A stretch of 41,915 nucleotides of DNA, taken from positions 1-41,915 of the forward strand of contig VGRQ01000002.1 of NCBI GenBank assembly GCA_016875315.1, written 5' to 3'. Position 1 is the stretch's first letter; every line of letters starts with the position of its first letter. The notes below the pieces were generated by a model that made no database searches, was not told where the DNA came from, and worked only from the letters and a program-made list of their open reading frames with translations. Source of the stretch: Deltaproteobacteria bacterium. GTDB taxonomy: Bacteria > Myxococcota_A > UBA796 > SXON01. The position numbers were made by a program, and so were the translations under genes. This document shows, in pieces, positions 6,601-26,353 of the stretch.

Positions 6601-7073
6601 ACAACGACTGCGACGGGTGGATCGAGACCGACGACCGCGACGGCGACGGCCTCGTCGACCTGATGGAGTGGATCCTCGGCTCCGACCCGGAAGACCCCGA
6701 CACCGACGGCGACACGATGAGCGACGGCGACGAGATCGCCGAGGGTCCCGACCGCGACGGCGACTACATCCTCGACTGCCTCGACACCGACGACGACAAC
6801 GACGGCATCGCCAGCGCCACCGAGATGAAGGCCGACCTCGACGGCGACGGGGTGTACGACACCGACGTCGACGGCGACGGCCAGCAGAACGCCCACGACA
6901 CTGACGCCGACGACGACGGCTATCTCGACCGCGACGAGGGCCAGGACGACTCCGACTACGACGGCAAGCCCGACTTCCTCGACTACCAGGGCGACTACGC
7001 GGGCGGCGGCTGCGGCCAGGGCTGGGCCGCGCTGCTGCTGCTTGCACCGCTCGCGCGGAGGGCGCGCCGGTGA
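3612..7073 (+). CDS. Large surface protein: parallel beta-helix / Pmp-type GGAIYA repeats, MopE-type Cys-rich repeats, thrombospondin-type-3 repeats and a MYXO-CTERM tail
   Basis: The N-terminal half has many GGA(I/L/V)Y(A/V) ... F..N repeats. The middle has about 8 repeats of the CDD.D..(I/V)(N/K)PGA.E..YDGIDQDCDG type, followed by D.D.DG..D..D TSP3-like repeats. The C-terminus is GGGCGQGWAALLLLAPLARRARR. Confidence 0.85.
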   Translation: MLIFLATRSLAATLEVGTDFATIQDAIDAAADGDTIHVPAGTWPEAIDITGKSITVLGDGAGVTILSPGTGDDVVTMSSLRAATLADLTIAPAGGRGVAVTDGQLALESVVIDGAGSASTRGGALYVDGGDLSLSDVIVTGSTAAYGAHLYATGGATVSAQSLDLTAGTAAYGGAIYADDGSTLELVDVVASAPYASAHGGFAYLDGADLVATDLVVDAPSGKNSYGAGFYLSGHASADIQSATISDASIASAASGYSGGAFYVRDGSSLALSESTLRDNAAYQGGAIALWEASSATLASVRFDTNSASAEGGAIYAADGSTVDMENCAFDQNSGSDGGAVYLGDSTTLLDADGSYTDNDASQSGGALFVDASAEASFDGSAFSSNAASDHGGAIYADGDLEIEEASLGTNRARRGHGGALYAEADTEIEATDFSDNSADLGSGGAIYAEGDLEANDCRFTGNEADEDGGAIYAEDGALSVWEGSFFDNLAGAYGGAIAASEPGDVTLARSYLHGNAAKDGGAIALREVDTAATLSNLRVTDNVASGNGGGLYLDGTTELEILNNTLAGNDASRDGGHLYTTGPLSLVNNIFYRAVDGGGAYGTSASTDRYYNLAYDNAGGDWLGWDDPTGTSGNLSTDPMLVAYTADGSRADDDLFLAEGSPCIDAGHPSIFDLDGTVSDIGAFGGPDADVADDDGDGFYDNVDCDDGDPAINPSESDIPYDGLDNDCDGADLVDVDGDGYAASISGGEDCDDDDPAVKPGAIETYYDGIDQDCDGGSDYDKDGDHHDADFIDGGDDCDDEDNTVHGAAQERWYDGIDQDCDDRDDFDRDKDGYTSADYGGDDCDDFNADRYPGHTEWPYDGIDQDCDNNDLVDVDGDGWIAEEAGGTDCNDAQSTVYPGAEEDPVDGFDTDCDGYSEWDRDGDGYDATDYGGGDCDDFDAAINPGVSEAWYDGIDQDCDGRDDDQDGDGYPLAQDCDDEDPGTNPGAMEKIDGQDNDCDGWIETDDRDGDGLVDLMEWILGSDPEDPDTDGDTMSDGDEIAEGPDRDGDYILDCLDTDDDNDGIASATEMKADLDGDGVYDTDVDGDGQQNAHDTDADDDGYLDRDEGQDDSDYDGKPDFLDYQGDYAGGGCGQGWAALLLLAPLARRARR

Positions 7074-8530
7074 TCCTCCTCGCCACCCTCGCCCACGCCC
7101 TCGACGCCCACGGTTTCGAGCTCTTCGGCACCACCGGCGACCCCGCCGCCTTCTCGCGCCTCGGCACCGCCTTCGCCGGCCGCAGCGGCTCCTGGGACAC
7201 GCTGATGGCCTTCGACTACGCCGACCGCCCGCTCTCCGAGGTGATGCCCTGGGGACGCGAGCCGGTGTTGTCGTCGCTCGGCACCGTCCAGTTCGCCGGC
7301 GGCTACTCCTTCGGCGGCCTCCGGCTCGACGCCGCCCTGCCCGTCCACGCCTTCGGCGAAGACCTGTCCGGTTCCTTCACGTCACTCGGCGACCTGCGCG
7401 CCGGGGTGCTCGTCCCCGCGCTGCGCGGGAAGGGCTGGATGCCCCAGGTCGCCCTGCAAGGCAACCTCTGGGCCCCCACCGGCGACGAGAGTCACTACGT
7501 GGGCAGCGCCGGGCCGCGCGCCGGGCTCCTCGCCCTGGCCGAGGTGCACCAGGGCAACATCGACATCCTCGGCATGGCCGGCCTCCAGGCCAGCTTCCCC
7601 GAGGAGGCCCGCAACCTCGACACCGGACTCGGGCCACTGGTGGGCCTCGGCGTCGGCTACAGCTGGAACGACGCGATCACCACGCAGGTGGAGTTCAGCT
7701 CCCAGTCCGACGTGGTGTCGGAGAGCTGGCCCCTGGAGGCGATGGTGTCCGGTCGGTACCGCCTGCCCCAGGGGGCCTTCGCCTCAGTCGGCGCGGCGGC
7801 CGGCCTCAACGACGGCGTGGGCGCGGCCTCGTGGCGCGCTTTCCTCTCGGTGGGCTGGACCTACACCCGGCCCGCGCCCCCGGCGCCTCCGCCCGAGATC
7901 GATCCCAACCTGGACACCGACGGCGATGGTTTCCCCGACATCGTCGACCAGTGCGACGACATGCCCGAGACCGTCGACGGCTTCGCCGACGACGACGGCT
8001 GTCCCGAGTTCGACGGCGACCAGGACGGCGTGGAGTTCGCGCGCGACGCCTGCCCGCGCGAGCCCATCCACCCCGAGCAAGACCCGCGCTACTCCGACGG
8101 CTGCCCGAAGGTGGCCGAGTGGGCAGGCGATCGCATCGTCATCACCGAGGCCATCTTCTTCCGCGAGGGCCGCGCCGAGCTGTTGCCCAGCGCCACGCCG
8201 GTGCTGGAGGCGGTGCGCGACGTGATGGTGTCACACCCGGAGATCGCCTACTTCCTCGTGGAAGGGCACACCAACACCAACGGCCCCGACGCCTACAACC
8301 TGCGCCTGTCCGACGCCCGTGCCTACGCGGTGATGGACTGGCTGGTGGGCCACGGCGTGGAGCCGAAGCGCCTCCTCTCGAAGGGTTTCGGCGAGACCCG
8401 CCTGCTCGTCCCGGAAACCGACCCGGACGCCGAGGCCATCAACCGCCGCGTGGAATTCCGCGTGGCGGCGGTGGAAGACCTGCCGGTGGATGCCCGGCAG
8501 GTGGTGGTGCCGGAGGATGTGCGGCGCTGA
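7070..8530 (+). CDS. OmpA-family outer-membrane protein with TSP3-like linker repeats
   Basis: C-terminal OmpA_C motifs: ITEAIFFREGRAELLPSATPVLEAV, FLVEGHTNTNGPDAYNLRLSDARAYAVMDWL, GFGETRLLVPE and NRRVEFRV. The linker reads TDGDGFPDIVDQCDD..DDDGCPE. The GTG start overlaps the upstream stop (GTGA). Confidence 0.85.
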   Translation: MILLATLAHALDAHGFELFGTTGDPAAFSRLGTAFAGRSGSWDTLMAFDYADRPLSEVMPWGREPVLSSLGTVQFAGGYSFGGLRLDAALPVHAFGEDLSGSFTSLGDLRAGVLVPALRGKGWMPQVALQGNLWAPTGDESHYVGSAGPRAGLLALAEVHQGNIDILGMAGLQASFPEEARNLDTGLGPLVGLGVGYSWNDAITTQVEFSSQSDVVSESWPLEAMVSGRYRLPQGAFASVGAAAGLNDGVGAASWRAFLSVGWTYTRPAPPAPPPEIDPNLDTDGDGFPDIVDQCDDMPETVDGFADDDGCPEFDGDQDGVEFARDACPREPIHPEQDPRYSDGCPKVAEWAGDRIVITEAIFFREGRAELLPSATPVLEAVRDVMVSHPEIAYFLVEGHTNTNGPDAYNLRLSDARAYAVMDWLVGHGVEPKRLLSKGFGETRLLVPETDPDAEAINRRVEFRVAAVEDLPVDARQVVVPEDVRR

Positions 8531-9403: not shown

Positions 9404-12400
9404 TCACCATCCATCGCAGTTGTTGTCTGGGTCGGAAAGCGCGAGTGGCGCGGCTGCCGGGTTGTAGGAGGCATCCGAATCGTCGCAATCGGCACGCGCC
9501 GGCCAGCCATCGCCGTCGGCGTCGCCCCCGCACTCCGTGTCGCTCGGGTCGGCGCACACGAGGAAGCGACGATACGGCGACGCAGACGCCACGTCTCCGA
9601 ACCCGGCCGTGGGCATCCACCCGGGCAGCAGGTTGTCGTTGGCGAGCAGCTGCACCCGGGCTGGAAACGGATCGGCGGCGACGGCCGGATCGAGGGTGAG
9701 CGTGATGTCCACGCTGGCGGCAGAGAGCGCGTTCGGAATCGTGGTGGGGGCGCCCGCCTCGCAGCCTTCGAAGGGCGCGACGCCGGCAGTGCCATAGGCA
9801 CCGCAGTACACGAAGTAGGGAACGTTCGAGAAGCTCGGCGCGTCGATCAAACAGCCATTGGCCGTGCTGAGCTGCACCAACTGTACCTGGTCCACTGTGA
9901 GCAGGGCATCGACAGGTTCACAGGCGCCGGTGTCGAGGCAGGCGGAGGTGTCGGCCTCGGCCCGGGTCACGGCCAGGAGAGGTGTACCCTCACGATTGCC
10001 CCGCACCCACTCGGTGTAGAACGTGGGTTCTGCAAGCCAGGTGCTGATCAACTCGTCCACCGTGGCGGCCGAGCGGTTGTCGGTTCGCTCGAAGAACGCG
10101 ACGAGGTTGGCCCAGAAGCCGGGCTCGCTGCCGCCGTGCGCCCGGTAGGTCCAGTACAGTTGCATGAGGGAATAGGGCCCGAACATGTAGGCAACGCTGT
10201 CGTCGGCGCCGTCTAGCTCCATATCGTCGGCCGAGTTGGCGCAGGTGGCGGTCGCGAGCGCCAGCGCGGCGTCGTAGGGCTCATCCTGTCCCTCCGCACC
10301 ATAGGAGGAGAACACCGGCTGGTCGCCGAGGCGCATCCACGTCAACAACGTGGGCACGCCCTCCACCACCCACCTGGCGCCCGCGTCGTAGGGCGGCTGC
10401 GGCTGCACCCGGAACGCCGTCGCCTGGTGGGCAATCTCGTGTAGCGCGGTGGCCCGCGCATAGTAGAGGGGCACGCCGTCGGCATGCGCGGCCCAGGTCA
10501 CGGTGAGGCCGGGGAATGCCTCCCCGTTGGCCGAGTCGCCGACCGCCGGGTCGGTCCACGCCACCTCCTCGGCGGCGCTGCGCGCCAGCACGAGCACGTT
10601 CACCGGCGAGCCTGGCAGCGCGGCCACGGTGGCCTCCAGCCAGTCGAGGTCGGCCTGCGCCGTGCCGTCGTCGAGGAAGTCGGCGTACGCAGACGCCGGC
10701 CGGTCGATGGCCGGGTCGATCCACACCGGGAGCGAGGACGCCGACGCCGACGTTAGCGTGGTGATCCGCGAGAGCCCCTCGGCAGCGATGAGCAGCGGCA
10801 TGTGCGTGTGCGACTCGCTGCCACGCTCCAGGTTGGCGAGCCCGGAGAAGGTGGTGAGCGCCGTGTCGGGCGCGCCCGGCGCCACGCCCTGCCAACCGGC
10901 GGGGAGCGTGAAGGTGGTGGTGGGCGCGAGGTCGGTCGCCGTGCCGAGGCTGCCGGGGACGACGGGGACTGCGGCGAGGATGACCACGTCGGTGCGCTCG
11001 TCGTCCGGCGTGGCGGTGTCGTCGCCGCCCGTCTGGTAGCGACACAGCGAGGCGTCCTTTCGCTTGTTCTCGACGCAATCGGTGAACCCTCCCTCCTCCA
11101 CCGGCAAGCTCTCCCACTCCACCGCCACCTGCACGTCCATCCCCTCCGTGACGATCCTCGGCAGTCGCGCGTACACGGTCGTGAAGCCGTCGCCTGTGGG
11201 CACCTGGTAGTGCGGCTCGATCGTGTAGCTCGCCCCCGTGTCTGGGTACGTCACCACCACCTGTAGCGTGGCGATCTCGGTGGCACTCTCCGTCGCCACC
11301 AGGAAGATCGCGTCCTCCGCGAAGCACTCGCTCCCCGACGCGCACGCCACGCTGAACGCATAGGATCCGCCCACCCTCCAGGTGCTCCCGTCGTGCCCAA
11401 GGGTGGCGTTCACCGCGTGGGCGGTGAGGGTGCTTCCGGAGAGGGTGCCCTCGGTGCGCTCGAGGTTCTGGTCGCCGGCCAGCGGGTCGGCCGCGTAGGT
11501 GTACACGATATCGTCGGTCCCGCCGCCAAACAGGAACGCGGTGCGCGTGACCGGGTCGTACGCGGCGGCGCCGCCGGACACCCCACCCCACGGCTCGGAG
11601 GGCGCCCAGAGCGTGCGCGCGCCGGCCGAGGTGTCCCAGGCCGAGATGTCGGACAGCTCTCCCCAGGGGTCCTCGCCGCCCCACACCAGCACCTGCTCGT
11701 CGCCGAACCAGGTCGCGGCCGCGTAGATCCGCTGTCCGATGTCGCCCTGCCCGTCCCAGGTGCCCGCGCCCGCATCGTACACGGCCACGTTGTCCCAGCC
11801 GTCAACCAGCCCGGCGGTCGCCGAGCTGTAGGCTCGGTCGCCCTCGATCCAGTCCGAGCTCGCCTGCATGCAGAAGTTGCAGATGTCGCCGGGTGCACCA
11901 TCCGCGAACTCGCAGCGGAGCTGGTGCTGGCGCCCCCTGCCGAGATCCTGGTGCAGCGTGCCGCCGACTTGCACGAGGGAGCCGGTGCCCGAGAACGCGT
12001 GGCTGGAGAAGCTCCACCAGGGGCCGGTGACGGCGCCGGCCGCGCCGCGCCGCCCGTGGGTGCTGTCGGGGGGCACCGCAGTGCCGGCGCTGGCGCTCTC
12101 GGGGTAGCCGTCAAGGCTGGCCGCGCTCCCGTCTACCACGATGAGCGGGTCGGCCGAGGCCGTCGCGAGGTGCTCGTCGGCATCGTCGTCGAGCCCGGCC
12201 ACGACGGACCACGCCGAGCAGTCGCCCTCGCAGCCAGTGGTGCCCCCGGCGATGAGAACGTCTCCGGAGTTGGGGTCGAGACCCAGGGCGAACTCGGCCA
12301 GGCCGGCCACGTTCGCGCTGTCATAGGCCCCCGTCTCCGCGCTGCCGCCGCTCAGGCAGATGGGGTCCTCCGCGCAGGCGGGCTGGTAGTAGTCGTTGTC

Positions 12401-13117
12401 CATTTCAGTGCCATCGCAGCGGAGCGTGGCAAGGCACGGGTTGGCGCTCGCGAAGGTTTTCACGTTGGAGAGGTAGAATGTACCCGAGCTACAGAGGTCG
12501 TCGTCGCAGTCTTCATCGTGCTCGAAGATGCCCTCGCCCAGGCACTCGCCCAGGCGACCGGCCATGGCGGAGGAGTAGGCACAGGGCACCTGCCGGAAGG
12601 AACTGTTGCAGTCGAGCGAGGGCCAGTAGCCCGCGTTGCTCGGCGTCGTGTCGCCGAGGTCGCTGGCGGCGTACTCGATGCTCGGCAGGGTGGTGAGGCT
12701 CGACCAGCCCAGTCCCGACGCCAGGTCGCCCGGCTCGGCCGACCACACGCCGTCACTCGCGGCCGTGGCGGCCGCCTCGTCGAGGTAGCCGGGCGCGAAC
12801 ACGAAGCGCTCGCGGGTGGGGTCCCATGCTAGCCCACCCGAGAAGCTAGCGATCCCCGAGTTGCCGAGCGAGATCCACGGGCAGGCCCCCGTCCCGAGGT
12901 GCGTGAGGTCCAGGAGCCATTCGTCGTCGAGCACCGCGCCGCTGCTCTCGTCCACGCCGCCGTGCAACAGCACGCCCCTCTGCACCCATCGCTCGCTCCC
13001 GCCGCTGCCGAAGTCCACCGGGGACTCGACGAAGAACCACGCCATCGAGTGGTAGCGGCGAGGTTCCGGCACGGCCGACCCGCAGGCCGCCGCGTCGGCG
13101 CTCAGGTTACCGACCAC
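9404..13117 (-). CDS. Giant secreted Kelch-like / HExxH metallopeptidase-like / MopE-repeat protein (main reading frame; its natural N-terminus appears to be the out-of-frame segment 13107-13220)
   Basis: Kelch-like units (RRYHSMAWF...LLHGG...DDEWLLDL; VLVWGG...ISAWD). HExxH motif in ATALHEIAHQA. C-terminal CGGDADGDGWPARADCDDSDASYNPAA...DNNCDGW. As drawn, the frame begins MVGNLSADAAAC and has no signal peptide. Confidence 0.8.
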   Translation of the reverse strand: MVGNLSADAAACGSAVPEPRRYHSMAWFFVESPVDFGSGGSERWVQRGVLLHGGVDESSGAVLDDEWLLDLTHLGTGACPWISLGNSGIASFSGGLAWDPTRERFVFAPGYLDEAAATAASDGVWSAEPGDLASGLGWSSLTTLPSIEYAASDLGDTTPSNAGYWPSLDCNSSFRQVPCAYSSAMAGRLGECLGEGIFEHDEDCDDDLCSSGTFYLSNVKTFASANPCLATLRCDGTEMDNDYYQPACAEDPICLSGGSAETGAYDSANVAGLAEFALGLDPNSGDVLIAGGTTGCEGDCSAWSVVAGLDDDADEHLATASADPLIVVDGSAASLDGYPESASAGTAVPPDSTHGRRGAAGAVTGPWWSFSSHAFSGTGSLVQVGGTLHQDLGRGRQHQLRCEFADGAPGDICNFCMQASSDWIEGDRAYSSATAGLVDGWDNVAVYDAGAGTWDGQGDIGQRIYAAATWFGDEQVLVWGGEDPWGELSDISAWDTSAGARTLWAPSEPWGGVSGGAAAYDPVTRTAFLFGGGTDDIVYTYAADPLAGDQNLERTEGTLSGSTLTAHAVNATLGHDGSTWRVGGSYAFSVACASGSECFAEDAIFLVATESATEIATLQVVVTYPDTGASYTIEPHYQVPTGDGFTTVYARLPRIVTEGMDVQVAVEWESLPVEEGGFTDCVENKRKDASLCRYQTGGDDTATPDDERTDVVILAAVPVVPGSLGTATDLAPTTTFTLPAGWQGVAPGAPDTALTTFSGLANLERGSESHTHMPLLIAAEGLSRITTLTSASASSLPVWIDPAIDRPASAYADFLDDGTAQADLDWLEATVAALPGSPVNVLVLARSAAEEVAWTDPAVGDSANGEAFPGLTVTWAAHADGVPLYYARATALHEIAHQATAFRVQPQPPYDAGARWVVEGVPTLLTWMRLGDQPVFSSYGAEGQDEPYDAALALATATCANSADDMELDGADDSVAYMFGPYSLMQLYWTYRAHGGSEPGFWANLVAFFERTDNRSAATVDELISTWLAEPTFYTEWVRGNREGTPLLAVTRAEADTSACLDTGACEPVDALLTVDQVQLVQLSTANGCLIDAPSFSNVPYFVYCGAYGTAGVAPFEGCEAGAPTTIPNALSAASVDITLTLDPAVAADPFPARVQLLANDNLLPGWMPTAGFGDVASASPYRRFLVCADPSDTECGGDADGDGWPARADCDDSDASYNPAAAPLALSDPDNNCDGW

Positions 13118-13220
13118 GCCTCCCGAGGAACCAGCCGGGGGGGGGGGATGATCCAGTATCTACGCCGTCTTTTCCGTCTACGCCGGTACAAGCATCGAGC
13201 AGCAGCAGCCCGAAGAGCAT
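13107..13220 (-). CDS. Orphan 5' segment encoding a lipoprotein signal peptide (MLFGLLLLDAC...), separated from the giant ORF by a frameshift in a C11 tract
   Basis: SD AGGAGG lies 4 nt upstream of the ATG at 13220. Translation is MLFGLLLLDACTGVDGKDGVDTGSSPPPGWFLGRRGR*. Deleting one C from the tract fuses it to ...PPPAGSSGGVVGNLSADAAAC of the 9404-13117 frame. Confidence 0.7.
   Translation of the reverse strand: MLFGLLLLDACTGVDGKDGVDTGSSPPPGWFLGRRGR
13137..13147. repeat. Homopolymer G11 (C11 on the coding strand)
   Basis: Counted directly: ccagcc + 11 g + atg. It is one of only two runs of 8 nt or longer that I found in the window. Confidence 0.95.
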
Positions 13221-15903: not shown

Positions 15904-16120
15904 GCGCGGGGCGACCGGTGGGTTGTCACGTGGCCGCGGTCGCTCGCGTCGATGTCGGACAGGGCCCCGTCAGGCACCCCTTGACAGCGATCGAGCGGGG
16001 GAGATGCTTGCCCGCAGCGCTGGCCGCTTCCCCGCGGCCGTCGCGAGGGACGGCTACGCGCGCTTGCCGGAGTCGCCTTTTTTCGGGCGTGTGCCCCTGG
16101 AGCCGCAGTGTCCCGCCCGG

Positions 16121-16140
16121 GTTTGGCACTTGTTTGGCAC
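16121..16140. promoter_or_regulatory. Direct repeat GTTTGGCAC x2 (11-bp register) upstream of the antitoxin gene; candidate TA operator
   Basis: gtttggcacttgtttggcac read directly. It sits about 55 nt upstream of the antitoxin ATG. Confidence 0.3.
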
Positions 16141-16195
16141 GAAAGTCGGTGCTATCGTCAGTACCCTCCTTGGACTGAACTTGCCGACCCTGAAG

Positions 16196-16471
16196 ATGAG
16201 CGAGGACTTGCGCCCGCTGACCGACCTGAAGTCCGAGGCCGGGGACATCGTGGGCCAGGTCGAGCGGACTGGCCGGCCCGTGGTGATCACCCGGCACGGC
16301 CGCGGTGTCGCCGTGATCCTCTCGCTAGCGGCGTTCGAGGAAATGCAGGCCCGCATGGAGACCGGCGACCTCCGTCGCGCCCTGGCCGAGGGGGAGGAAG
16401 ACGTGCGCGCGGGTCGCCTGCTGACCCACGCCGAGGTCGCCAGCCGGCACGGTCGGGCCGCGCGTGGGTGA
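16196..16471 (+). CDS. Type II antitoxin, Phd/YefM family
   Basis: LRPLTDLKSEAGDIVGQVERTGRPVVITRHGRGVAVILSLAAFEEMQ is the typical Phd/YefM N-domain. It overlaps the toxin start by 8 nt. Confidence 0.75.
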   Translation: MSEDLRPLTDLKSEAGDIVGQVERTGRPVVITRHGRGVAVILSLAAFEEMQARMETGDLRRALAEGEEDVRAGRLLTHAEVASRHGRAARG

Positions 16472-16787
16472 CCTGCGGGTCGAGGTCCTGTGGACCGAGC
16501 GTGCCGCGCGCGACCTGGGCCGTGCCATTGGTTTCGCCGAGGAGCGGGGCCAACGCGCGGCGGATCGCGTGGCCCGACAGGTCCTGGAGCGGGTGGATCT
16601 CCTCGCGTCCCAGCCCGAGCTAGGCTCGCCGGTCGAACTGGACGCGGAGCCGACTCTCTATCGCAGGCTGGTGGCGGGCCCGTACTCGGTCTACTACCGG
16701 GTGGCAAGGGGGGTCGAGGTCACCGAGGTGATCGTGGTTCGCGTGTGGCACTCGTCGAGGGACCCGGCCACGCTCGTGCTCGAGTAG
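16464..16787 (+). CDS. Type II toxin, ParE/RelE family
   Basis: 107 aa. The C-terminal part, YRRLVAGPYSVYYRVARGVEVTEVIVVRVWHSSRDP, is typical of ParE/RelE. It is translationally coupled to the antitoxin gene. Confidence 0.8.
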   Translation: MGDLRVEVLWTERAARDLGRAIGFAEERGQRAADRVARQVLERVDLLASQPELGSPVELDAEPTLYRRLVAGPYSVYYRVARGVEVTEVIVVRVWHSSRDPATLVLE

Positions 16788-16952
16788 GAGGCGAGCTTCG
16801 AGGGGGCCGGGCGCGTGCCAGATAGCCAGGTGACTCCGGCAAGCGCGTTGCAGTCCCTCGCGACAGGCGCGGGGCAGCCGCCCGAAACCTCGGAGGTGGA
16901 CCGGGGGACCGCCTTTGCCGCTTGCGCGCGACCGCGCGCCCCCGTCGGCGCG

Positions 16953-17699
16953 CTACCCCATCCAAGCCCCGCCGTTGACATCGATCCCCTGCCCGGTGAC
17001 ACACGAGGCCGCGGGCGACATCAACCACGCCACCACCCCGGCGATCTCGTCGGGGGTGCCCATCCGCCCGAGGGGAACGGCGCTCATCGCCCGGCGGTGG
17101 GCCTCCTCGCGGCTCACGCCCATCGCCTGGGCCATGCCCTCGATGCCCGACCAGGCCATGTCGGTGTCCACCCAGCCGGGGCAGATGGCGTTCACCAGCA
17201 CCCCCTGCGGCGCCAGTTCCAGCGCCATCGCGCGGGTGAGCCCGAGCAGGGCCGCCTTCGACGCGCAGTAGCCGGTGTAGCCGGGCACGCCGAAGCGGGC
17301 GAGCACGCTCGCGATCACGATGAAGTAGCGCCGGTCGGGGCCGGGCGCGAGGTGGCGCTCGGCGGCGCGCAGCGTGTTGTAGGCGCCGGTGAGGTTGGTG
17401 GCCACGATCTCGTCGAAGCGGTCGCCCTCGCCGGGGGCGTTGGCCCCGCCGATGCCGGCGGCGGCCACCACCGCGAACACCGGCCCGTTCACCTCCGCGG
17501 CCTGCGCGAAGGCAGCGTTGACCGCGGCACGATCCGACACGTCGCAAGGCAGGCCGAGCACGCCGTCGAGACCGGCCAGCAACTCCGCCCGGCGAGCGAG
17601 ACCGGTCACCTTCGCGCCATCGGCGACCATCCTGAGGGCAATGGCGCGGCCGATACCGCTGGAAGCGCCGGTGACGAGCACGTGGGGGGCAGTAGACAA
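16953..17699 (-). CDS. Short-chain dehydrogenase/reductase (FabG-like)
   Basis: TGASSGIGRAIA cofactor motif, catalytic YCASKAAL, and LVNAICPGWVDTDM. Confidence 0.9.
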   Translation of the reverse strand: MSTAPHVLVTGASSGIGRAIALRMVADGAKVTGLARRAELLAGLDGVLGLPCDVSDRAAVNAAFAQAAEVNGPVFAVVAAAGIGGANAPGEGDRFDEIVATNLTGAYNTLRAAERHLAPGPDRRYFIVIASVLARFGVPGYTGYCASKAALLGLTRAMALELAPQGVLVNAICPGWVDTDMAWSGIEGMAQAMGVSREEAHRRAMSAVPLGRMGTPDEIAGVVAWLMSPAASCVTGQGIDVNGGAWMG

Positions 17700-17746
17700 G
17701 GAGGCTCCGCGGGGGACGGCGCCTTATCGGGGTCGTGCTCGCCGAC

Positions 17747-17764
17747 CACGCGAAACCCGCGCGA
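17747..17764. repeat. 18-bp sequence CCACGCGAAACCCGCGCG (copy 1; contains a CGCG-aaacc-CGCG hairpin)
   Basis: An identical 18-mer recurs at 21880-21897. The two copies bracket the S8 protease/paralog module. Confidence 0.8.
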
Positions 17765-17776
17765 CCGACGGCCACG

Positions 17777-18664
17777 CTACCAGTCGGGCGCCTGCCAGAT
17801 CGGGTCGGCGCAGTTGACACGACGCACGATCTCGATGGTGTACCTGGCGGTGCCCACGGTGGGCTGCATGGCGTACTCCACCTGGAGCAGCCGGTGGTCG
17901 TAGGTGCCGTCCTCGCCGAAGTCGGCCTTGGTGTCAATACGGCAGGTCCGGTAGGTCCACAGGTCGTCCGTGGCGTGGGAGCCGACGGCGAAGGGGATGC
18001 TCCAGTCGTAGTCACCGTCGTCACTGGCGAATCGGTAGACCTCGAGCGTGCGCGCGAGGTCGAAGAACGCCGACCGGTCGGCAGGTATCGCTGTCACCGT
18101 CCAGAGGGGGTCGATCGTTCGCACGCCGGAATCCGACTCGAAGAGACTGCCCACGTCGGCCATCTGCGAGAACACGGTGCACCTTGGGACGCGGAAGGCA
18201 CGCCTGGTGCTCTCGGTGCGGTCCCAGATCACGTCGATCCAACGTGGATCGGTTGTGTCGGTCGAGTCGTAGAGCTCGGCATCCGCTCCGACGCCCCTCT
18301 CGAAGATCGCGAGCGCGTCTGTCTCGGAGTCCGCGCACCACACACCGTCATCCCTCAGGAGCCCCGGCGCATACCACACGGACGTCGGCTCGCCGAATCG
18401 CCACAACCAGTCCGGGGCCTGCGTGTTGCCGTCGAGCCACTCGGTGTAGTACCGGCTCGCCCAGCCGGCGCAGAACGCCTCGTCGCTGATGCTCGGAGCG
18501 CACTGTGGCAGGCCGTCGTCGTCGAACTGCACGCTGGCGTAGGGCAACTCGCTGGCCACCGAGTCTGTTCCCGACGAGTCGGCTTGGCAGGCAAGAAGAT
18601 GGACAAGGAAGCCCGCACGCGCGTCCAGTGACGGCCACCTGCCCCGTCGGATGATGACTACCAA
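17777..18664 (-). CDS. Hypothetical Cys-containing lipoprotein, paralog 2 of a tandem pair
   Basis: The C-terminal 78 aa are identical to the upstream paralog except for one substitution (R/K). The proposed TTG start at 18664 gives MVVIIRRGRWPSLDARAGFLVHLLAC. No ATG or GTG is available after the upstream stop, so the start is uncertain. Confidence 0.6.
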   Translation of the reverse strand: MVVIIRRGRWPSLDARAGFLVHLLACQADSSGTDSVASELPYASVQFDDDGLPQCAPSISDEAFCAGWASRYYTEWLDGNTQAPDWLWRFGEPTSVWYAPGLLRDDGVWCADSETDALAIFERGVGADAELYDSTDTTDPRWIDVIWDRTESTRRAFRVPRCTVFSQMADVGSLFESDSGVRTIDPLWTVTAIPADRSAFFDLARTLEVYRFASDDGDYDWSIPFAVGSHATDDLWTYRTCRIDTKADFGEDGTYDHRLLQVEYAMQPTVGTARYTIEIVRRVNCADPIWQAPDW

Positions 18665-19503
18665 TCTGGCGCCTGCCAGATCGGGTCGGCGCAGTTGACG
18701 CGACGCACGATCTCGATGGTGTACTTGGCGGTGCCCACGGTGGGCTGCATGGCGTACTCCACCTGGAGCAGCCGGTGGTCGTAGGTGCCGTCCTCGCCGA
18801 AGTCGGCCTTGGTGTCGATCCGGCAGGTCCGGTAGGTCCACAGGTCGTCCGTGGCGTGGGAGCCCACAGCGAAGGGGATGCTCCAGTCGTAGAAGCCGTC
18901 GGATGCGACGCGGCGATAAACCTCCAACACTCGGGCAACGTCGAAGAACGACTCCCGGCTCGCCGGAACGGTGGCGTACGTCCAGAGCGGATCGATGGTG
19001 CGCGCCCCAGACTCGGCCTCGAAGAGCCGACCGACGTCGTACATCTGCGAGAAGACACTGCAGCGAGGGACACGAAACACGTTCCAGGACACCTCGGTCT
19101 GGCCGAAGATCAGGTCAATCCAACGGGGATCCGATGAATCAGTCGAGTCGAAATACTCCGCGGACCCCGGCCAGATTCTGCTGAACACGGCGAAGGCCTC
19201 TTCGTCGGTGTCGGCACACCACGCGCCGTCGTCCTCCACCCCGCCAGCGGAGAACCACACCATCGGCGGATCATCGAATCGAGTCAACCAGTCGGGAGAC
19301 ATCGGACTCCCCTCAACCCATCCGGTGTAGTAGCGGCTGGCCCACCCTGCGCAGAACGCCTCGTCGCTGATGCTCGCCGCGCACTCCGGCAGGCCGTCGT
19401 CGTCGAACTGCACGCTGGCGTAGGGCAACTCGCTGGCCACCGAGTCTGTTCCCGACGAACCGGCGTGGCAGGCGAGAAGATACACCGTCACCAGGGAGGT
19501 CAC
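18658..19503 (-). CDS. Hypothetical Cys-containing lipoprotein, paralog 1 of a tandem pair
   Basis: The GTG at 19503 overlaps the protease stop (GTGA) and gives (M)TSLVTVYLLAC. Conserved blocks are SSGTDSVASELPYASVQFDDDGLP.CA.SISDEAFCAGWASRYYT and YDWSIPFAVGSHATDDLWTYRTCRIDTKADFGEDGTYDHRLLQVEYAMQPTVGTA.YTIEIVRRVNCADPIWQAPDW. Confidence 0.6.
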   Translation of the reverse strand: MTSLVTVYLLACHAGSSGTDSVASELPYASVQFDDDGLPECAASISDEAFCAGWASRYYTGWVEGSPMSPDWLTRFDDPPMVWFSAGGVEDDGAWCADTDEEAFAVFSRIWPGSAEYFDSTDSSDPRWIDLIFGQTEVSWNVFRVPRCSVFSQMYDVGRLFEAESGARTIDPLWTYATVPASRESFFDVARVLEVYRRVASDGFYDWSIPFAVGSHATDDLWTYRTCRIDTKADFGEDGTYDHRLLQVEYAMQPTVGTAKYTIEIVRRVNCADPIWQAPDW

Positions 19504-21728
19504 GGGCACGCCAGGACCGCCCCCACGGCGTCCAGGTAGCGCCCGCCATCCACTTCTCCGCTGATGTCTTCGGCGGGACTGGAATCCGCCCCACTCAGTA
19601 GCGCATCGGCGAGATCGGCGCCCGTCGCCATTGACGACGGGCACTGTGCGTAGACCAGCCCGGCAACACCACCCACCACGGCAGCTGCCGCAGACGTCGC
19701 GCCAGTCCAGTCACGGATATCCGGATTCCACTTGGCGTACCCATTGGCGGAGGTCCCGGTTCCAACTGATGGCATGCCCGCGAGGAGCGCGTCGGCCCCG
19801 GTGGTAGCGTCGTACGTCCTGTATAGGTAGCCCGGAGCACCGAGTTCCATGCTCCCCGTTCCGTGACTTGATGCGTGCTCGGTGGGTCCTGCATACGCGG
19901 TGTCGTTCCACCGGCCCGTCATCACGCCCGTCGCAGCGGCGTAGTCAATCCCCGTGGCCATCACATTGACGGTGTTCGTGGCCTGATTGTCGGCAGGCAG
20001 GCAGTAGATGCCGATGTCGTCGCAGTCGAGGTCCCAGTTCCCGGCCGCAGTGACGAAGACGATGTCGGGAAAACTCTCGAACTCCGATGTGATCTTATCG
20101 ATCATCGCCTCCTCCTCGGTCTCGCTGACCTCGTACGCACCGGCGTATTCCATCACGATCACGTTCGCGCCGTTCTGATAGAGGTAGTCGATGGCCGCCA
20201 GGTAGGCGGCGAGATCGTACGCCCCGCACTCCTCGTTACCGCTGAGCCGGGCCTCCATGATCCGGGCGCCGCCCATCACACCGGCGCCGTTCCGCGCGTT
20301 GTCCCACTCCATCGCCACCAGGCCCGCCGTCTGCGTGCCGTGGTGAGCCCCATCTGCGGGGTACGACTCGTTGTCCAGATCAGTCGCACCCTCGTCGAGC
20401 TCGCATAGGCCGGTGTCCTTGTTCTCCGTCCAGCGCAGGATCACCCGCGCCCCCAGGATGTCGTCCACAACGCCGTTGCCGTCGTCGTCCGTGCCGTCAG
20501 CAAAGGCTTCCGCCAAATCGCCGCCCTGGTATTGGCCGTCATCAAACGGTACCGACGCCTCGTCATAGAGCGAGTCATCGAGCGTGATTCCCGTCGCCGC
20601 CTGGAGGTCGGCGAGCGCGGCGGCGAGCGCGCTGGCGCTCGACGGGTTGTTGAGGTCGTTGAGCGTGAAGACGCCGTCGCCGTCGAGATCGAACACGTCG
20701 ACGAAGCTGCTCGTGCCGATGTCGGGAAGCTCCCCCTCGTTCACCCACAGGTTGTTCACCAGGTCCGGGTGGTTGTAGTCGATCCCGGTGTCTACGAAGC
20801 CCACGATCACCTCGCGGCTACCCTCCGCCGCGTAGAGGTCCCAGGCGTCCTCCACGCCGATGTCCGCGAGGAAGGCGGCCTCGGCATCGACGTAGTAGGG
20901 GTCGTCGTGGAGTGTGGCATCGTGCCCCGCTGGCCGGAGAAGCGGGTCGAGGGTGGCGAAGGCGACGAGCGGCGAGGCGCGATATTGGACGAGCTTCGCG
21001 AGGATACCGCCCCAGTCCGTACCCGCGAACTCGAGCACGCGCAGGCCGGTCTGCCGCGACATCACCTCCCGCGCGCCCGTGGCCACCTCCCAGCTTTCCA
21101 CCTCCGCGGCCGTGGCCTCTGGGTCGAAGCGGACGAGGAGCCGCCGCTCGTGGAACTCGAAGCGCGCGGGCTCGGCCACGAGCTGCGCGTCGAGTTCGGT
21201 GTCGACCGCCACGACCGAAGCGCCCACGGCGACATCGGAGTCGGGCTCGGTGTCGAGCACGAGTTGCAGACCGGTACGCCCGCCCGGGGTGATGACCGGC
21301 AGGCTCCCCTCGGGCAAGAACCGGACGACGGCCGAGCCGGCGGCCGCCTGCAGCGAGGGCCCGAAGAGGATGGGAAAGCTACCGCCAGGCGCCTCCGCCA
21401 GCCCGGCGCTGACGCCCACTCGCACGTCCTGCACCTGCCCGGGCGGGAGCCAATACTGACCGGCAAAGCGCGGGAACTCCCCGGTGACCGCGTAGAACCA
21501 CACCGGCACTGGCCCGGTGGCGACCGTGAGGTACTCGGGCGGTTGCAGCTGCCCGTTGACCAGGCGCCGGTGCCTCACCTTGATCTCGTCGATGAAGACG
21601 CGCAGCTTGCTCGCGCCCGAGAAGGCGCCCGATGTCGCGTGCTCCAGCTTCAAGTTCAGGACCAGAAGGCCATCGGTGGGCGGATCCGGGACGATCGACG
21701 GCTCCTCCACGATACAGCCGGCGGCCAA
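19500..21728 (-). CDS. Subtilisin-like serine protease (peptidase S8). The lipoprotein signal peptide and the SD+ATG lie upstream (to 21808) but out of frame.
   Basis: Catalytic boxes VGFVDTGIDYNHPDL (Asp), HGTQTAGLVA (His), TAAGN (oxyanion Asn) and GATSAAAAVVGGVAGL (Ser). In-frame upstream codons encode ...HHSRRLWLATGLLAAGC with no start codon. Confidence 0.85.
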   Translation of the reverse strand: MAAGCIVEEPSIVPDPPTDGLLVLNLKLEHATSGAFSGASKLRVFIDEIKVRHRRLVNGQLQPPEYLTVATGPVPVWFYAVTGEFPRFAGQYWLPPGQVQDVRVGVSAGLAEAPGGSFPILFGPSLQAAAGSAVVRFLPEGSLPVITPGGRTGLQLVLDTEPDSDVAVGASVVAVDTELDAQLVAEPARFEFHERRLLVRFDPEATAAEVESWEVATGAREVMSRQTGLRVLEFAGTDWGGILAKLVQYRASPLVAFATLDPLLRPAGHDATLHDDPYYVDAEAAFLADIGVEDAWDLYAAEGSREVIVGFVDTGIDYNHPDLVNNLWVNEGELPDIGTSSFVDVFDLDGDGVFTLNDLNNPSSASALAAALADLQAATGITLDDSLYDEASVPFDDGQYQGGDLAEAFADGTDDDGNGVVDDILGARVILRWTENKDTGLCELDEGATDLDNESYPADGAHHGTQTAGLVAMEWDNARNGAGVMGGARIMEARLSGNEECGAYDLAAYLAAIDYLYQNGANVIVMEYAGAYEVSETEEEAMIDKITSEFESFPDIVFVTAAGNWDLDCDDIGIYCLPADNQATNTVNVMATGIDYAAATGVMTGRWNDTAYAGPTEHASSHGTGSMELGAPGYLYRTYDATTGADALLAGMPSVGTGTSANGYAKWNPDIRDWTGATSAAAAVVGGVAGLVYAQCPSSMATGADLADALLSGADSSPAEDISGEVDGGRYLDAVGAVLACP

Positions 21729-21754
21729 GAGGCCAGTCGCGAGCCAAAGGCGTC

Positions 21755-21796
21755 GTGAGTGGTGGGTGCCGGGTGCCGGGTGCCGGGTGCCGGGTG
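21755..21796. repeat. Heptanucleotide tandem repeat: (CCGGGTG)x4 perfect, preceded by the degenerate copies GTGAGTG and GTGGGTG (coding-strand unit CACCCGG)
   Basis: Read directly: gtgagtg gtgggtg ccgggtg ccgggtg ccgggtg ccgggtg. Confidence 0.95.
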
Positions 21797-21879
21797 AAAG
21801 TACATCATCTCGCCCTCAGTGCAAGCTCATCGTACTGCGCTCAGGCGTCAGCCGCAAGTACGCTCTGCATCCTTCGCCC

Positions 21880-21897
21880 TTCACCCACGCCACGCGA
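21880..21897. repeat. 18-bp sequence CCACGCGAAACCCGCGCG (copy 2)
   Basis: Identical to 17747-17764. It lies in the divergent intergenic region between the S8 protease and the sulfatase-like gene. Confidence 0.8.
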
Positions 21898-21937
21898 AAC
21901 CCGCGCGGTCGTAGCCCAGGCCCGCTAGGCTCGCGCC

Positions 21938-23344
21938 GTGCTGCTCACCATGCTCGCCTGCGACCCCGAGCCCCCCGAGGGCTGCGCCTTCTCGTCGATG
22001 GCCACGGCGCCGGAGTCCGCCAGCACCTGCCCCGCCGACGCGGGCGACTACGACCCGGTGGCGATGGGCCCGGCGCCGCTGGTGGTGATGTTCACCGTCG
22101 ACACGCTCAATCGCGCCTACCTCGACGGTCGCCACCCGGACTGGGACATCACCCCCCGGCTCGACGCCTTCTTCGCCGAGTCGGCGTACCTGCCCGAGGT
22201 GGTGTCCGTCCGCAGCCTCACCGGCGTGGCGCTCAGTTCCCTGCTCACCGGCCGCTACCCGCGGGCGCACGGCGTGCGCGACCACGCCGAGCAGGTGGGC
22301 ACCACCATCGAGACCCTCCCCGAGCACCTCGCCTCGGGCGGCTACGCCACCCGCGCCTTCATCTCCAACCAGTGCTGGGTGATCGACGGCAAGGTCGACG
22401 AGCTCACCTGCCGATGGAACCGGCAGGACGAGTCCGAACAGGATCTCAAGGACGAGGAGCTGGTCACGAGCTTCACCCGCGCGCTGGACCAGCTGAGCGG
22501 ACCCACTTTCCTCTGGATTCACCTCGTGGATCCCCACACGCCCTACGACGCGCGCGAGCCCTACTACGACACATTCCACCCCGAGCCCCCGGCCGGCGAC
22601 TTCGACCCGGGGGTGGAGGGTGCGCTCGCCGACGTCAACCTCGGGGAGCGCAGCATCACCCCGGAGGAGCACGCGCAGGTGGAGGCGGCCTACGCCTCGC
22701 AGGTGGCGCTGGTCGACGCCCAGTTCGGCGAGGTGCTCGACGCGCTGTCGTCGCGGGGCCTCGACGACGCGATTGTCGTCTTTGGCGCCGACCATGGCGA
22801 GGAACTGGGCCTGCACAGCCACTACTACTGGCATTCTTGCTCCACCTTCAACGCGTCGCTCATGCTGAGCTTCGCCATCCGTGCTCCCGGGCGCCTCGCG
22901 GGCGGCGCGGTGATGGCGAGCCCGGTGTCGAGCACCGACATCGCGCCCACCGTTGCCGAGCTGGCGGGCCTGCCGTGGGACAACGACATCGACGGCACCT
23001 CGCTGGTCGGCGACTTCCGCGCCTGCCGCGAGCCCACGCGACCGGCCTACTTCGAGCGCGCCACCGAGGCGGCCGGCATGGTGGTGGAGGGCCACAAGCT
23101 GGTGCTCGAGCCCGAGGGCTGGACCAGCGCCTGCGAGCCCTACACCGACGACATCCCCTACGTGATGGCCCGGGAACAGCTCTACGACATCGAGTCCGAC
23201 CCCGACGAGTGTACCAACCTGGCCGAGGATGAACCCGCGATGTTCAGCGAACTACGTGGACAACTCTGCGACTGGGTGCTCGCCACGCCCTGGGTGGCCA
23301 CCAACAACGAGCGAAACCCGGTGGTCCGCGCCTGCGGGGGCTGA
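21938..23344 (+). CDS. Sulfatase-like / alkaline-phosphatase-superfamily lipoprotein (no canonical C/S-x-P-x-R motif)
   Basis: MLLTMLAC lipobox. Metal-site motif VVMFTVDTLN. SLLTGRYPRAHGV is the sulfatase signature II-like region. WIHLVDPHTPYD and FGADHGEELG are also present. Confidence 0.75.
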   Translation: MLLTMLACDPEPPEGCAFSSMATAPESASTCPADAGDYDPVAMGPAPLVVMFTVDTLNRAYLDGRHPDWDITPRLDAFFAESAYLPEVVSVRSLTGVALSSLLTGRYPRAHGVRDHAEQVGTTIETLPEHLASGGYATRAFISNQCWVIDGKVDELTCRWNRQDESEQDLKDEELVTSFTRALDQLSGPTFLWIHLVDPHTPYDAREPYYDTFHPEPPAGDFDPGVEGALADVNLGERSITPEEHAQVEAAYASQVALVDAQFGEVLDALSSRGLDDAIVVFGADHGEELGLHSHYYWHSCSTFNASLMLSFAIRAPGRLAGGAVMASPVSSTDIAPTVAELAGLPWDNDIDGTSLVGDFRACREPTRPAYFERATEAAGMVVEGHKLVLEPEGWTSACEPYTDDIPYVMAREQLYDIESDPDECTNLAEDEPAMFSELRGQLCDWVLATPWVATNNERNPVVRACGG

Positions 23345-25734: not shown

Positions 25735-25803
25735 AAATGTCAAGAAAATGTCAATTGCCCCCCCCCCCGGGGATTGACGGACCGTCGCGACGCGCAGTAC
25801 TCT
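25735..25803 (+). promoter_or_regulatory. AT-rich promoter region: AAATGTCAA x2 (11-bp register), C11 tract, then TTGACG-18 nt-TACTCT
   Basis: aaatgtcaagaaaatgtcaattg + c11 + ggggattgacgg ...(18 nt)... tactct. AAGGAG SD lies 7 nt before the ATG at 25829. TCAAT/ATTGA inverted arms flank the tract. Confidence 0.45.
25758..25768. repeat. Homopolymer C11 immediately upstream of the putative -35 box
   Basis: Counted directly (tcaattg + 11 c + gggg). Confidence 0.95.
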
Positions 25804-25828: not shown

Positions 25829-26353
25829 ATGAAGAACTGGACAGGAATGAACGTGTTCCAGTGGGAACACTCTCGGCGGTGGGATCTCGCCCCCGGTGCC
25901 AACGAGTTCGTGCGAGCCGAGGGCGCGCTGATGCTCCCCGGCTTCGTCACCCTCAGCGTGTTCTTCCGCCGCGCCTCGCAGACCGCGAGCACCGTCGAGC
26001 TGGCGCTGTGGACGGCCCCGCTCTACACTCGCCCCCTCGACGAGGACAACTTCACCAACAACCCCGGCCAGTACCTCTTGCCGCTCACCCTCCAGCCGGC
26101 CACCGGCCTGCAGATGACGGGCACCGGCGCGCAGGTGTTCGGCGCCCGCCTCCAGCCGGAGCAGGCGGTGGGGTCGCTGATCTTCTGGCAGCTCAAGAAC
26201 ACCGGAGGCGCCCAGTCGGTGATCGTGGGCGACATCTACGTGGTGCCCAACCACGCGGGGAGCATGATGCTCACCGACGTCCGCCGGACGATCGACGCGG
26301 GCAGCGGGCCGAGTCACGGCAACCTGGCCCGCGCCTCGTTGCGGCAGGGGTAG
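25829..26353 (+). CDS. Hypothetical protein (174 aa), first gene of the cassette
   Basis: Strong SD (AAGGAG) and good GC3. No signal peptide. No family recognised by eye. Confidence 0.6.
   Translation: MKNWTGMNVFQWEHSRRWDLAPGANEFVRAEGALMLPGFVTLSVFFRRASQTASTVELALWTAPLYTRPLDEDNFTNNPGQYLLPLTLQPATGLQMTGTGAQVFGARLQPEQAVGSLIFWQLKNTGGAQSVIVGDIYVVPNHAGSMMLTDVRRTIDAGSGPSHGNLARASLRQG

Follow-up and report, generated by a model that had tools for sequence, protein, structure and literature searches.

Tandem lipoprotein paralogs with a mosaic that indicates gene conversion, behind a subtilase gene in a deltaproteobacterial contig

We analyzed a stretch of 41,915 nucleotides from an uncultured Deltaproteobacteria bacterium (contig VGRQ01000002.1, assembly GCA_016875315.1), here called the window, in which 2 paralogous lipoprotein genes, referred to as A and B, follow a gene for a protease of the S8 (subtilase) family. 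The S8, B, and A genes are arranged head-to-tail on the minus strand and overlap, as in an operon. The genes and their segments are listed below, where dS and dN denote synonymous and nonsynonymous divergence between A and B.

19500 to 21808, minus strand: S8 subtilase lipoprotein gene, with an ATG at 21808; the 742-amino acid open reading frame (ORF) spans 19500-21728
18658 to 19503, minus strand: paralog B, a 281-amino acid lipoprotein precursor (VTSLVTVYLLAC...) with a GTG start
17777 to 18664, minus strand: paralog A, 295 amino acids if read from a TTG that overlaps the stop codon of B by 7 nucleotides; lipobox LLAC
19323 to 19481, minus strand: 5′ homogenized tract, copy in B; partner in A at 18442-18600
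18442 to 18600, minus strand: 5′ homogenized tract, copy in A; partner in B at 19323-19481; lipobox, disordered tether and first 2 conserved cysteines; dS 0.31
18661 to 18891, minus strand: 3′ homogenized tract, copy in B; partner in A at 17780-18010
17780 to 18010, minus strand: 3′ homogenized tract, copy in A; partner in B at 18661-18891; 96.5% identity, dS 0.15; encodes the C-terminal 4-strand β-sheet
18011 to 18441, minus strand: unconverted center of A; partner in B at 18892-19322; 64% nucleotide and 56% amino acid identity, dS about 1.3, dN/dS 0.27

The original prediction, made from the DNA letters, was that 2 tandem paralogous lipoprotein genes overlap behind the S8 gene, and this was borne out. 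The stop codon of the S8 gene and the GTG start of B share the nucleotides GTGA (19503-19500), the stop codon of B and the TTG start of A share TTGGTAG (18664-18658, 7 nucleotides), and both proteins contain the lipobox L-L-A-C. The TTG is the sole canonical in-frame start between the stop codon of B and the lipobox of A. The public gene call for A (P0003) begins past the lipobox and would yield a cytoplasmic product; we consider this start less likely to be correct. Since A has retained an intact ORF, the lipobox, all 6 cysteines, and a signature of purifying selection, it is most likely expressed and functional. The homology between A and B starts about 4 codons upstream of the lipobox cysteine and stops shortly past the stop codon. 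It follows that A lost the original start and that most of its signal peptide (MVVIIRRGRWPSLDARAGF...), with an arginine-rich and newly recruited N-terminus, comes from outside the duplicated homology. Scans of the window for Rfam families and tRNA genes gave no matches, and a scan of positions 16800 to 22100 for promoter and terminator consensus sequences was uninformative, the DNA being 70% G+C.

An ungapped self-comparison aligned A with B without gaps at an offset of exactly 881 nucleotides, and no insertions or deletions were observed from the lipobox cysteine to the stop codon across A, B, and 2 orthologs. This agrees with the predicted exact register, conserved ends, and diverged center. 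Where 8 differences had originally been counted in each conserved block, the exact numbers are 10 of 237 nucleotides in the 3′ block (17777-18013 against 18658-18894) and 10 of 136 nucleotides in the 5′ block (18445-18580 against 19325-19460). The center (18014-18444) differs at 156 of 431 nucleotides (63.8% identity), and its protein identity of 56% (80 of 143 residues) falls within the predicted 55% to 60%. The longest identical run between the copies is 91 nucleotides.

The divergence is not uniform along the genes. A maximum chi-square analysis with 2 breakpoints gave a value of 117, reached in 0 of 300 permutations, and placed the breaks at positions 18442 and 18010 in A (19323 and 18891 in B). 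A Sawyer-type test on condensed polymorphic sites, the kind of gene-conversion check that the original prediction had proposed, identified concordant runs of 16 and 11 sites, neither of which was matched in 10,000 permutations (empirical P < 1e-4 each). The additional suggestion of diversifying selection on the center was rejected: dN/dS between A and B is 0.27 both overall and in the center, pN/pS, the corresponding ratio of uncorrected proportions, is at most 0.6 in every sliding 30-codon window, and no window exceeds 1. The center is old, with saturated silent divergence (dS about 1.3). A diversity-generating retroelement was also considered and rejected, as the spectrum of substitutions between A and B is not adenine-biased, although a nearby reverse transcriptase was not tested for.

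We compared the pair with orthologs in 2 sister genomes, L001 (GCA_040960315.1) and L002, a metagenome-assembled genome labeled Proteobacteria bacterium. Both have the same neighborhood with a single, B-like lipoprotein gene after the S8 gene, and B is the ortholog of this single copy, both by position and by its center. The closest loci are thus single-copy. A single copy with no link to an S8 gene had been named in advance as an outcome that would speak against the prediction; these loci are linked to S8, and the association stands. Identities and parsimony-informative sites are given below for each segment, where O stands for the 2 orthologs and the 3 site counts refer, in order, to A=B against O, B=O against A, and A=O against B.

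5′ block: nucleotide identity 91.5% for A-B and 80-81% for B-ortholog; informative sites 16, 2, and 7
Center: nucleotide identity 64% for A-B and 79-81% for B-ortholog; informative sites 22, 93, and 32
3′ block: nucleotide identity 96.5% for A-B and 89-91% for B-ortholog; informative sites 10, 2, and 2

Sites that group A with B outnumber those that group B with the orthologs by 26 to 4 in the flanks, whereas the corresponding numbers in the center are 22 and 93 (Fisher P = 9e-12). The same flip between flanks and center was seen at silent sites, defined as third positions at which the amino acid is unchanged (13 sites to 1 in the flanks and 5 to 15 in the center), and it backs the gene conversion of the flanks that the original prediction had put forward. 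Nei-Gojobori dS values for the 5′ block, center, and 3′ block were 0.31, 1.34, and 0.15 between A and B, and 0.79, 0.87-1.13, and 0.34-0.48 between B and the orthologs. The disordered tether (residues 12-26 in B) is 87% identical between A and B and only 40% identical between B and its ortholog. Across more distant members of the family, the identity to B is uniform along the protein (0.30, 0.30, and 0.32 in the 3 segments). Since the ortholog groupings flip, silent sites and the disordered tether are homogenized, and family-wide conservation is uniform, differential constraint is excluded as the cause. The mosaic indicates that an older tandem duplication came first and that both ends underwent gene conversion later, once the lineage had split from L001 and L002. 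Gene conversion is an ordinary mechanism, here found in an undescribed and very rare family.

In the proposed course of events, B would be the ancestral copy and A would have arisen by an 881-bp tandem duplication with its left edge about 4 codons upstream of the lipobox cysteine, whereby A would have gained a new TTG start in the last codons of B and a new N-terminus of the signal peptide. The duplication would date back to the divergence from the sister genomes or earlier, because the silent divergence of the center is saturated and B groups with the orthologs there. Later intragenomic conversion between the adjacent copies would then have overwritten about 160 nucleotides at the 5′ end, with the lipobox, the tether, and the first cysteine pair, and about 230 nucleotides at the 3′ end, with the C-terminal β-sheet. 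Judging by dS (0.31 vs 0.15), the 5′ tract seems to be the older of the 2 or to have partly diverged again. The center would have escaped conversion and evolves under purifying selection. It may have become too divergent to recombine, functional divergence may be maintained there, or both. No conversion tracts were found in the older tandem pairs of loci L003 and L009.

The best-surviving alternative, which we nevertheless regard as improbable, is that the tandem duplication is recent, having followed the separation from the sister genomes, and that the center of A was later replaced from a divergent allele of another lineage; the ends would then be young rather than converted. Such an import would likewise place A with B in the flanks and A outside in the center, and the region is prone to rearrangement, with a relocated SDR gene, 18-bp direct repeats that flank the cassette, and a MopE-repeat gene that is absent. 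However, a donor was not found: besides B and the ortholog cluster, the nearest relative of A among about 15 billion proteins has an identity of about 39%. Furthermore, the unequal silent divergence of the flanks (0.31 vs 0.15) is not expected from a single duplication, and foreign DNA would have had to cross over precisely and in frame at 2 points.

A scenario without recombination, in which the ends are under much stronger purifying selection or the center is under diversifying selection, seems very improbable. It can draw on the C-terminal 77 residues, which are 95% or more conserved between orthologs and have a lower dS also in that comparison. However, silent sites and the disordered tether are homogenized in the same way, the 5′ block is no more conserved than the center between B and the orthologs (0.80 vs 0.79-0.81 nucleotide identity), family-wide conservation is even, pN/pS is at most 0.6 everywhere, and there is no adenine bias. 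The incongruence at silent sites largely refutes this scenario.

We attach almost no credence to a metagenome assembly artefact, in which variants of a single gene from 2 strains or species were joined one behind the other: the window is indeed a metagenomic contig and a short-k assembly breaks exactly in the shared block, but the centers differ at 36% of their nucleotides while the flanking genes differ by only about 10% to 15% from the sister genomes, the junctions between the end of B and the start of A and between the end of A and the SDR gene are both unique sequence, the longest identical run is just 91 nucleotides, and an in-frame TTG start with a preserved lipobox would be an unlikely accident at the junction. 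The short-k assembly in question (L017, run SRR7985589) is independent and 100% identical to the window over 5.6 kb; its end inside the shared 5′ block is expected at a genuine repeat. A metagenome scan with a narrow alignment recovered only the already known contig and no additional close relatives.

The paralogs belong to a family that is undescribed, very rare, and without a Pfam entry or a structural match. A word-indexed search of 5.8 billion clusters recovered only A, B, and one ortholog cluster, whereas 13 clusters were recovered when a profile was searched exhaustively against the representatives of about 15 billion proteins; a further search added P0016 and brought the number to 14. 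Comparisons of A and B with Pfam, NCBIfam, and PADLOC gave no real match, only a sub-threshold chance match of 10 residues to Proteasome_A_N, and a profile search against PDB sequences gave nothing. The original prediction had recognized no family in these proteins, and the Pfam, NCBIfam, PDB, and Foldseek searches agree with this. Neither sequence nor fold searches revealed similarity to described protease-inhibitor, chaperone, or defense families.

The members are 245 to 290 amino acids long (about 270), with a very short N-terminal hydrophobic stretch that ends in the lipobox cysteine. A lipobox-type motif with the cysteine (criterion [LVI][ASTVI][GAS]C) is present in nearly all of them. 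The signals comprise 8 to 13 residues before the cysteine, and in L008 an upstream in-frame stop codon excludes a longer signal. It was also observed that lipoprotein signals in these genomes are unusually short in general and often lack a basic residue, as in MSMITLVLAAAC, MTLLWLVMGC, MLFGLLLLDAC, and MLLMLALLGC (P0004-P0016; L008 454; L009 about 5183; window 13220; L001 10880). Another 6 cysteines vary little or not at all among the members (C41, C51, C96, C148, C227, and C271 in B), a pattern suggestive of an extracytoplasmic protein with 3 disulfides. An AlphaFold2 model of B, with a predicted local distance difference test score (pLDDT) of 80 and a predicted template modeling score (pTM) of 0.80, consists of a disordered tether (residues 1-28, pLDDT < 50), an α/β center, and a C-terminal 4-strand antiparallel sheet. 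Weak Foldseek matches of this model to PsbP-, Mog1-, and BamC-like proteins (TM ≤ 0.3) were not used.

A gene for an S8 protease of the same subfamily is located directly upstream of the lipoprotein gene in 10 of the 12 loci (the window, L001, L002, L003/4, L005-7, L011, L012, L014, L015, and L016), usually with an overlap of 4 to 13 nucleotides. Two copies of the lipoprotein gene are found in the window, L003/4, and L009/10, and a single copy in L001, L002, L005-7, L008, and L015. The copies in L003/4 and L009/10 are only 31% identical and derive from an older duplication that defines 2 clades of the family. Duplication of the partner gene behind the protease is thus recurrent.

The original prediction had missed that the S8 gene, too, encodes a lipoprotein and has a start codon placed out of frame by a heptamer repeat, and that the cassette lies between 18-bp direct repeats. 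From the ATG at 21808, the S8 gene comprises the heptamer repeat, a signal peptide with a lipobox (..RRLWLATGLLAAGC), a DUF4382-like β-sandwich, a prodomain, and a catalytic domain with the D/H/S residues. The N-terminal domain is all-β, with a weak DUF4382 match in an ortholog (E = 1.4e-4) and PF14321 in the remote homolog P0027. The prodomain has a β-α-β-β-α-β arrangement, with a weak Fervidolysin_NPro-like match in an ortholog (E = 5.5e-3) and Foldseek alignments that extend over pro-subtilases; it is separated from the catalytic domain by a disordered linker. The catalytic domain matches PF00082 with 80.9 bits against a gathering cut-off of 21.8, its D(T)G, HGT, and TSAA motifs are shared by 8 S8 orthologs, and Foldseek relates it to subtilases (E = 1e-13). 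It also contains an acidic insert of about 130 amino acids with DxDxDG-type motifs, resembling calcium-binding sites. No autotransporter match was found in Pfam, and the model ends with the catalytic domain rather than a β-barrel. The subfamily ends in a conserved Cys-Pro (19500-19512 in the window, and in the orthologs).

Because the prodomain has the lipid-anchored N-terminal domain on one side and the catalytic domain on the other, autoprocessing would release the latter from the anchor. A and B would be stoichiometric envelope partners that are translationally coupled to S8, a role suggested by how tightly the genes are coupled and by a partner that is lipid-anchored and has a compact fold rich in disulfides. 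It is conceivable that they are anchor, regulator, or inhibitor-like subunits; a role as substrates of S8 seems rather unlikely. Our preference would be for a membrane-anchored regulator or holder of the S8 catalytic domain, because self-processing at the prodomain would sever that domain from the anchor.

The beginning of the S8 gene contains the following repeat.

21764 to 21796, minus strand: heptanucleotide repeat, on the gene strand (CACCCGG)x4 and then CACCCAC, between the ATG and the signal peptide (...SRRLWLATGLLAAGC)

With the 5 units in the window, the frame that opens at the ATG at 21808 differs from that of the S8 ORF and stops after 50 codons, such that the gene is OFF as assembled. 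A simulation of the reading frames showed that 3 or 6 units yield an intact lipoprotein precursor of 764 or 771 amino acids, whereas 4, 5, or 7 units truncate it. At the corresponding place, L001 has 5 CACCCAG units and is out of frame (7696-7742), and L002 has 3 units and is in frame (7686-7718; MTYFHPAPSTQRSRRGLFATVVFAAGC...); the consensus of the unit in the window, L001, and L002 is CACCCRG. A heptamer of unrelated sequence, (GTGTTCC)x4, was found in L003/4 (L003 7641-7668), with candidate GTG starts inside the repeat. In L005 (2357-2378) and L006 (181-203), the ATG is followed by C11 and C12, respectively; both are out of frame, and C10 or C13 would fit. These 2 loci are identical over 2,150 flanking nucleotides (150 upstream and 2,000 downstream). 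Finally, L016 has a C10 tract just past the signal peptide that is in frame (1183-1289). Homopolymer lengths in assemblies can be wrong, whereas heptamer counts are unlikely to be.

A total of 12 frame-shifting repeats were counted in non-redundant loci amounting to 144 kb, 6 of them within S8 5′ ends that together span 1.8 kb (P = 2.5e-10); counted per lineage, the number is 4 of 7 (P = 5e-7), and the 4 lineages have 2 different heptamers and 2 poly-C tracts. The repeats suggest slipped-strand phase variation that has evolved convergently. The S8-B-A operon would be switched ON and OFF by slipped-strand changes in the number of heptamers at the S8 start, and would be OFF as assembled.

Other breaks and tracts were noted in these loci. 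In L012 (about 185-260), the frame of the S8 signal peptide (MNRFLTIVFFLAGC) does not match that of the mature part, and no repeat is obvious there; in L014 (3723-6013), 2 overlapping ORFs make up the S8 gene, again without a repeat at that point. Pseudogenes and sequencing errors are both conceivable. The window contains another candidate for a contingency gene (9404-13220, minus strand), which begins with the short lipoprotein signal MLFGLLLLDAC, which is followed by C11 (13137-13147), after which the frame stops. C10 or C13 would join the signal to an ORF of 1237 amino acids without a Pfam match, giving a lipoprotein of 1271 or 1272 amino acids. An intergenic C11 tract (25758-25768) is located just upstream of a -35-like TTGACG that precedes a gene with an ATG at 25829, and the homologous tract in L002 (953-962) has a length of 10. 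This tract may be a promoter-level length switch, or noise.

The S8-B-A cassette is bracketed by exact 18-bp direct repeats.

21890 to 21907, minus strand: 18-bp direct repeat CGCGCGGGTTTCGCGTGG, upstream copy, at the junction of the sulfatase and S8 genes
17746 to 17763, minus strand: 18-bp direct repeat CGCGCGGGTTTCGCGTGG, downstream copy, at the junction of paralog A and the SDR gene

In L001 (region 6792-7623) and L002, a single related copy is located between the sulfatase and SDR genes. The SDR gene is upstream of the S8 gene in these genomes and downstream of the lipoprotein genes in the window; one of the two, the cassette or the SDR block, has changed place. The junction contains GGTCGCG, a short microhomology. 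A gene for a MopE-repeat lipoprotein of 1293 amino acids follows the lipoprotein gene in L001 (10880-14761) and is absent from the window, which instead contains a Phd/YefM-ParE toxin-antitoxin pair at 15904-16952 (ParE at 16464-16787). The Phd/YefM-ParE pair in L001 (18094-18530) is located beyond the AdoHcy hydrolase gene, in inverted orientation. In L016, a gene for a serine recombinase (resolvase) at 312-926 is encoded on the opposite strand directly upstream of the pair of S8 and lipoprotein genes, and it may be relevant to the mobility or inversion of the cassette.

Taken as a whole, the locus is probably best explained by tandem paralogs of a rare family of envelope lipoproteins that derive from an old duplication and had their ends converted; they may act as partners of the S8 protease, in an operon that would be switched by a heptamer repeat. 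Several observations weigh against this explanation. The signal peptide of B is very short, with 11 residues before the cysteine and no basic residue (no K or R), and Foldseek searches of the B model against PDB and BFVD gave no significant match, the best having E values of 0.02 to 0.05 and TM values of at most 0.3. Two loci lack an adjacent S8 gene, namely L008, with a lone lipoprotein gene, and L009/L010, with a tandem pair. Only 2 outgroup orthologs are available, and these are close to each other, such that the rooting of the center relies on distances and a neighbor-joining tree of the family. The saturated dS of the center makes the age of the duplication relative to speciation approximate. 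In the 3′ block, dS is low between orthologs as well (0.34-0.48 vs about 1), and extra constraint or exchange between lineages may contribute there. Lastly, the tandem junction and the repeat lengths are taken from assemblies.

In Helicobacter pylori, the babA/babB(/babC) genes undergo intragenomic gene conversion, and a 5′ slipped-strand repeat in one of the genes toggles its frame (PMC4552749). The locus described here similarly combines a conversion mosaic between paralogs with a putative slipped-strand repeat. However, the Bab proteins are β-barrel outer-membrane adhesins encoded at dispersed loci in a host-adapted pathogen, whereas A and B are small 6-cysteine lipoproteins in strict tandem behind a protease gene in uncultured environmental bacteria. 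The repeat is here located in the upstream protease gene rather than in the paralogs, and there is no sequence or fold relationship. In Neisseria meningitidis, NalP is a lipid-anchored S8 protease that is phase-variable through slippage of a poly-C repeat that lies within its coding sequence, and its state alters the display of other surface lipoproteins (PMC5472700). Both systems feature an S8 protease with an N-terminal lipid anchor and a frame-shifting repeat in the coding region, but NalP is an autotransporter with a C-terminal β-barrel, whereas the S8 protein here has a DUF4382-like N-terminal domain and an internal prodomain, and no barrel. Furthermore, the substrates of NalP are not encoded by overlapping downstream genes.

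Bordetella SphB1 is a lipidated subtilisin-like surface protease of the NalP type. In Myxococcus xanthus, the S8 protease PopC is co-transcribed with a small partner, PopD, that binds and controls it. The coupling of a small partner gene to an S8 gene is shared with the present locus, although neither PopC nor PopD is a lipoprotein and both stay in the cytoplasm until they are secreted, and the searches related neither A nor B to an annotated protein. The tufA and tufB genes evolve in concert, as intragenomic conversion keeps tracts of the paralogs closer to each other than to their orthologs. Conversion of A and B differs from this in being partial, with a mosaic and sharp breakpoints.

The mosaic of A and B is a clean and statistically strong example of partial gene conversion between tandem paralogs, and it shows which regions are free to diverge. 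Its context outweighs the mosaic itself: a rare lipoprotein family is almost always coupled to a lipid-anchored S8 protease with independently evolved frame-shifting repeats in several lineages, which would make S8 and the lipoprotein a concrete and testable protease-partner pair. Tentatively, the S8-lipoprotein cassette could be a contingency locus of free-living, uncultured, high-G+C Gram-negative bacteria, with an envelope protease and one or two partner lipoproteins under stochastic control by repeats. The repeats would have evolved independently at least 4 times (2 different heptamers and 2 poly-C tracts at the same place in the gene), the cassette, with its flanking 18-bp direct repeats, would be mobile in position, and the partner gene would undergo recurrent duplication and remodeling by gene conversion. 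If so, the lipoproteins would represent a new family of protease partners with a fold that has no match in PDB. Repeat-driven ON/OFF switching combined with conversion between paralogs is the classic toolkit of host-adapted pathogens such as Neisseria, Helicobacter, and Haemophilus. Phase and antigenic variation of the kind seen in pathogens would then also occur in environmental lineages, where it could help to evade recognition by phages or predators, and switching in genomes from environmental metagenomes would suggest bet-hedging in natural communities, perhaps directed at phages, predators, or competitors.

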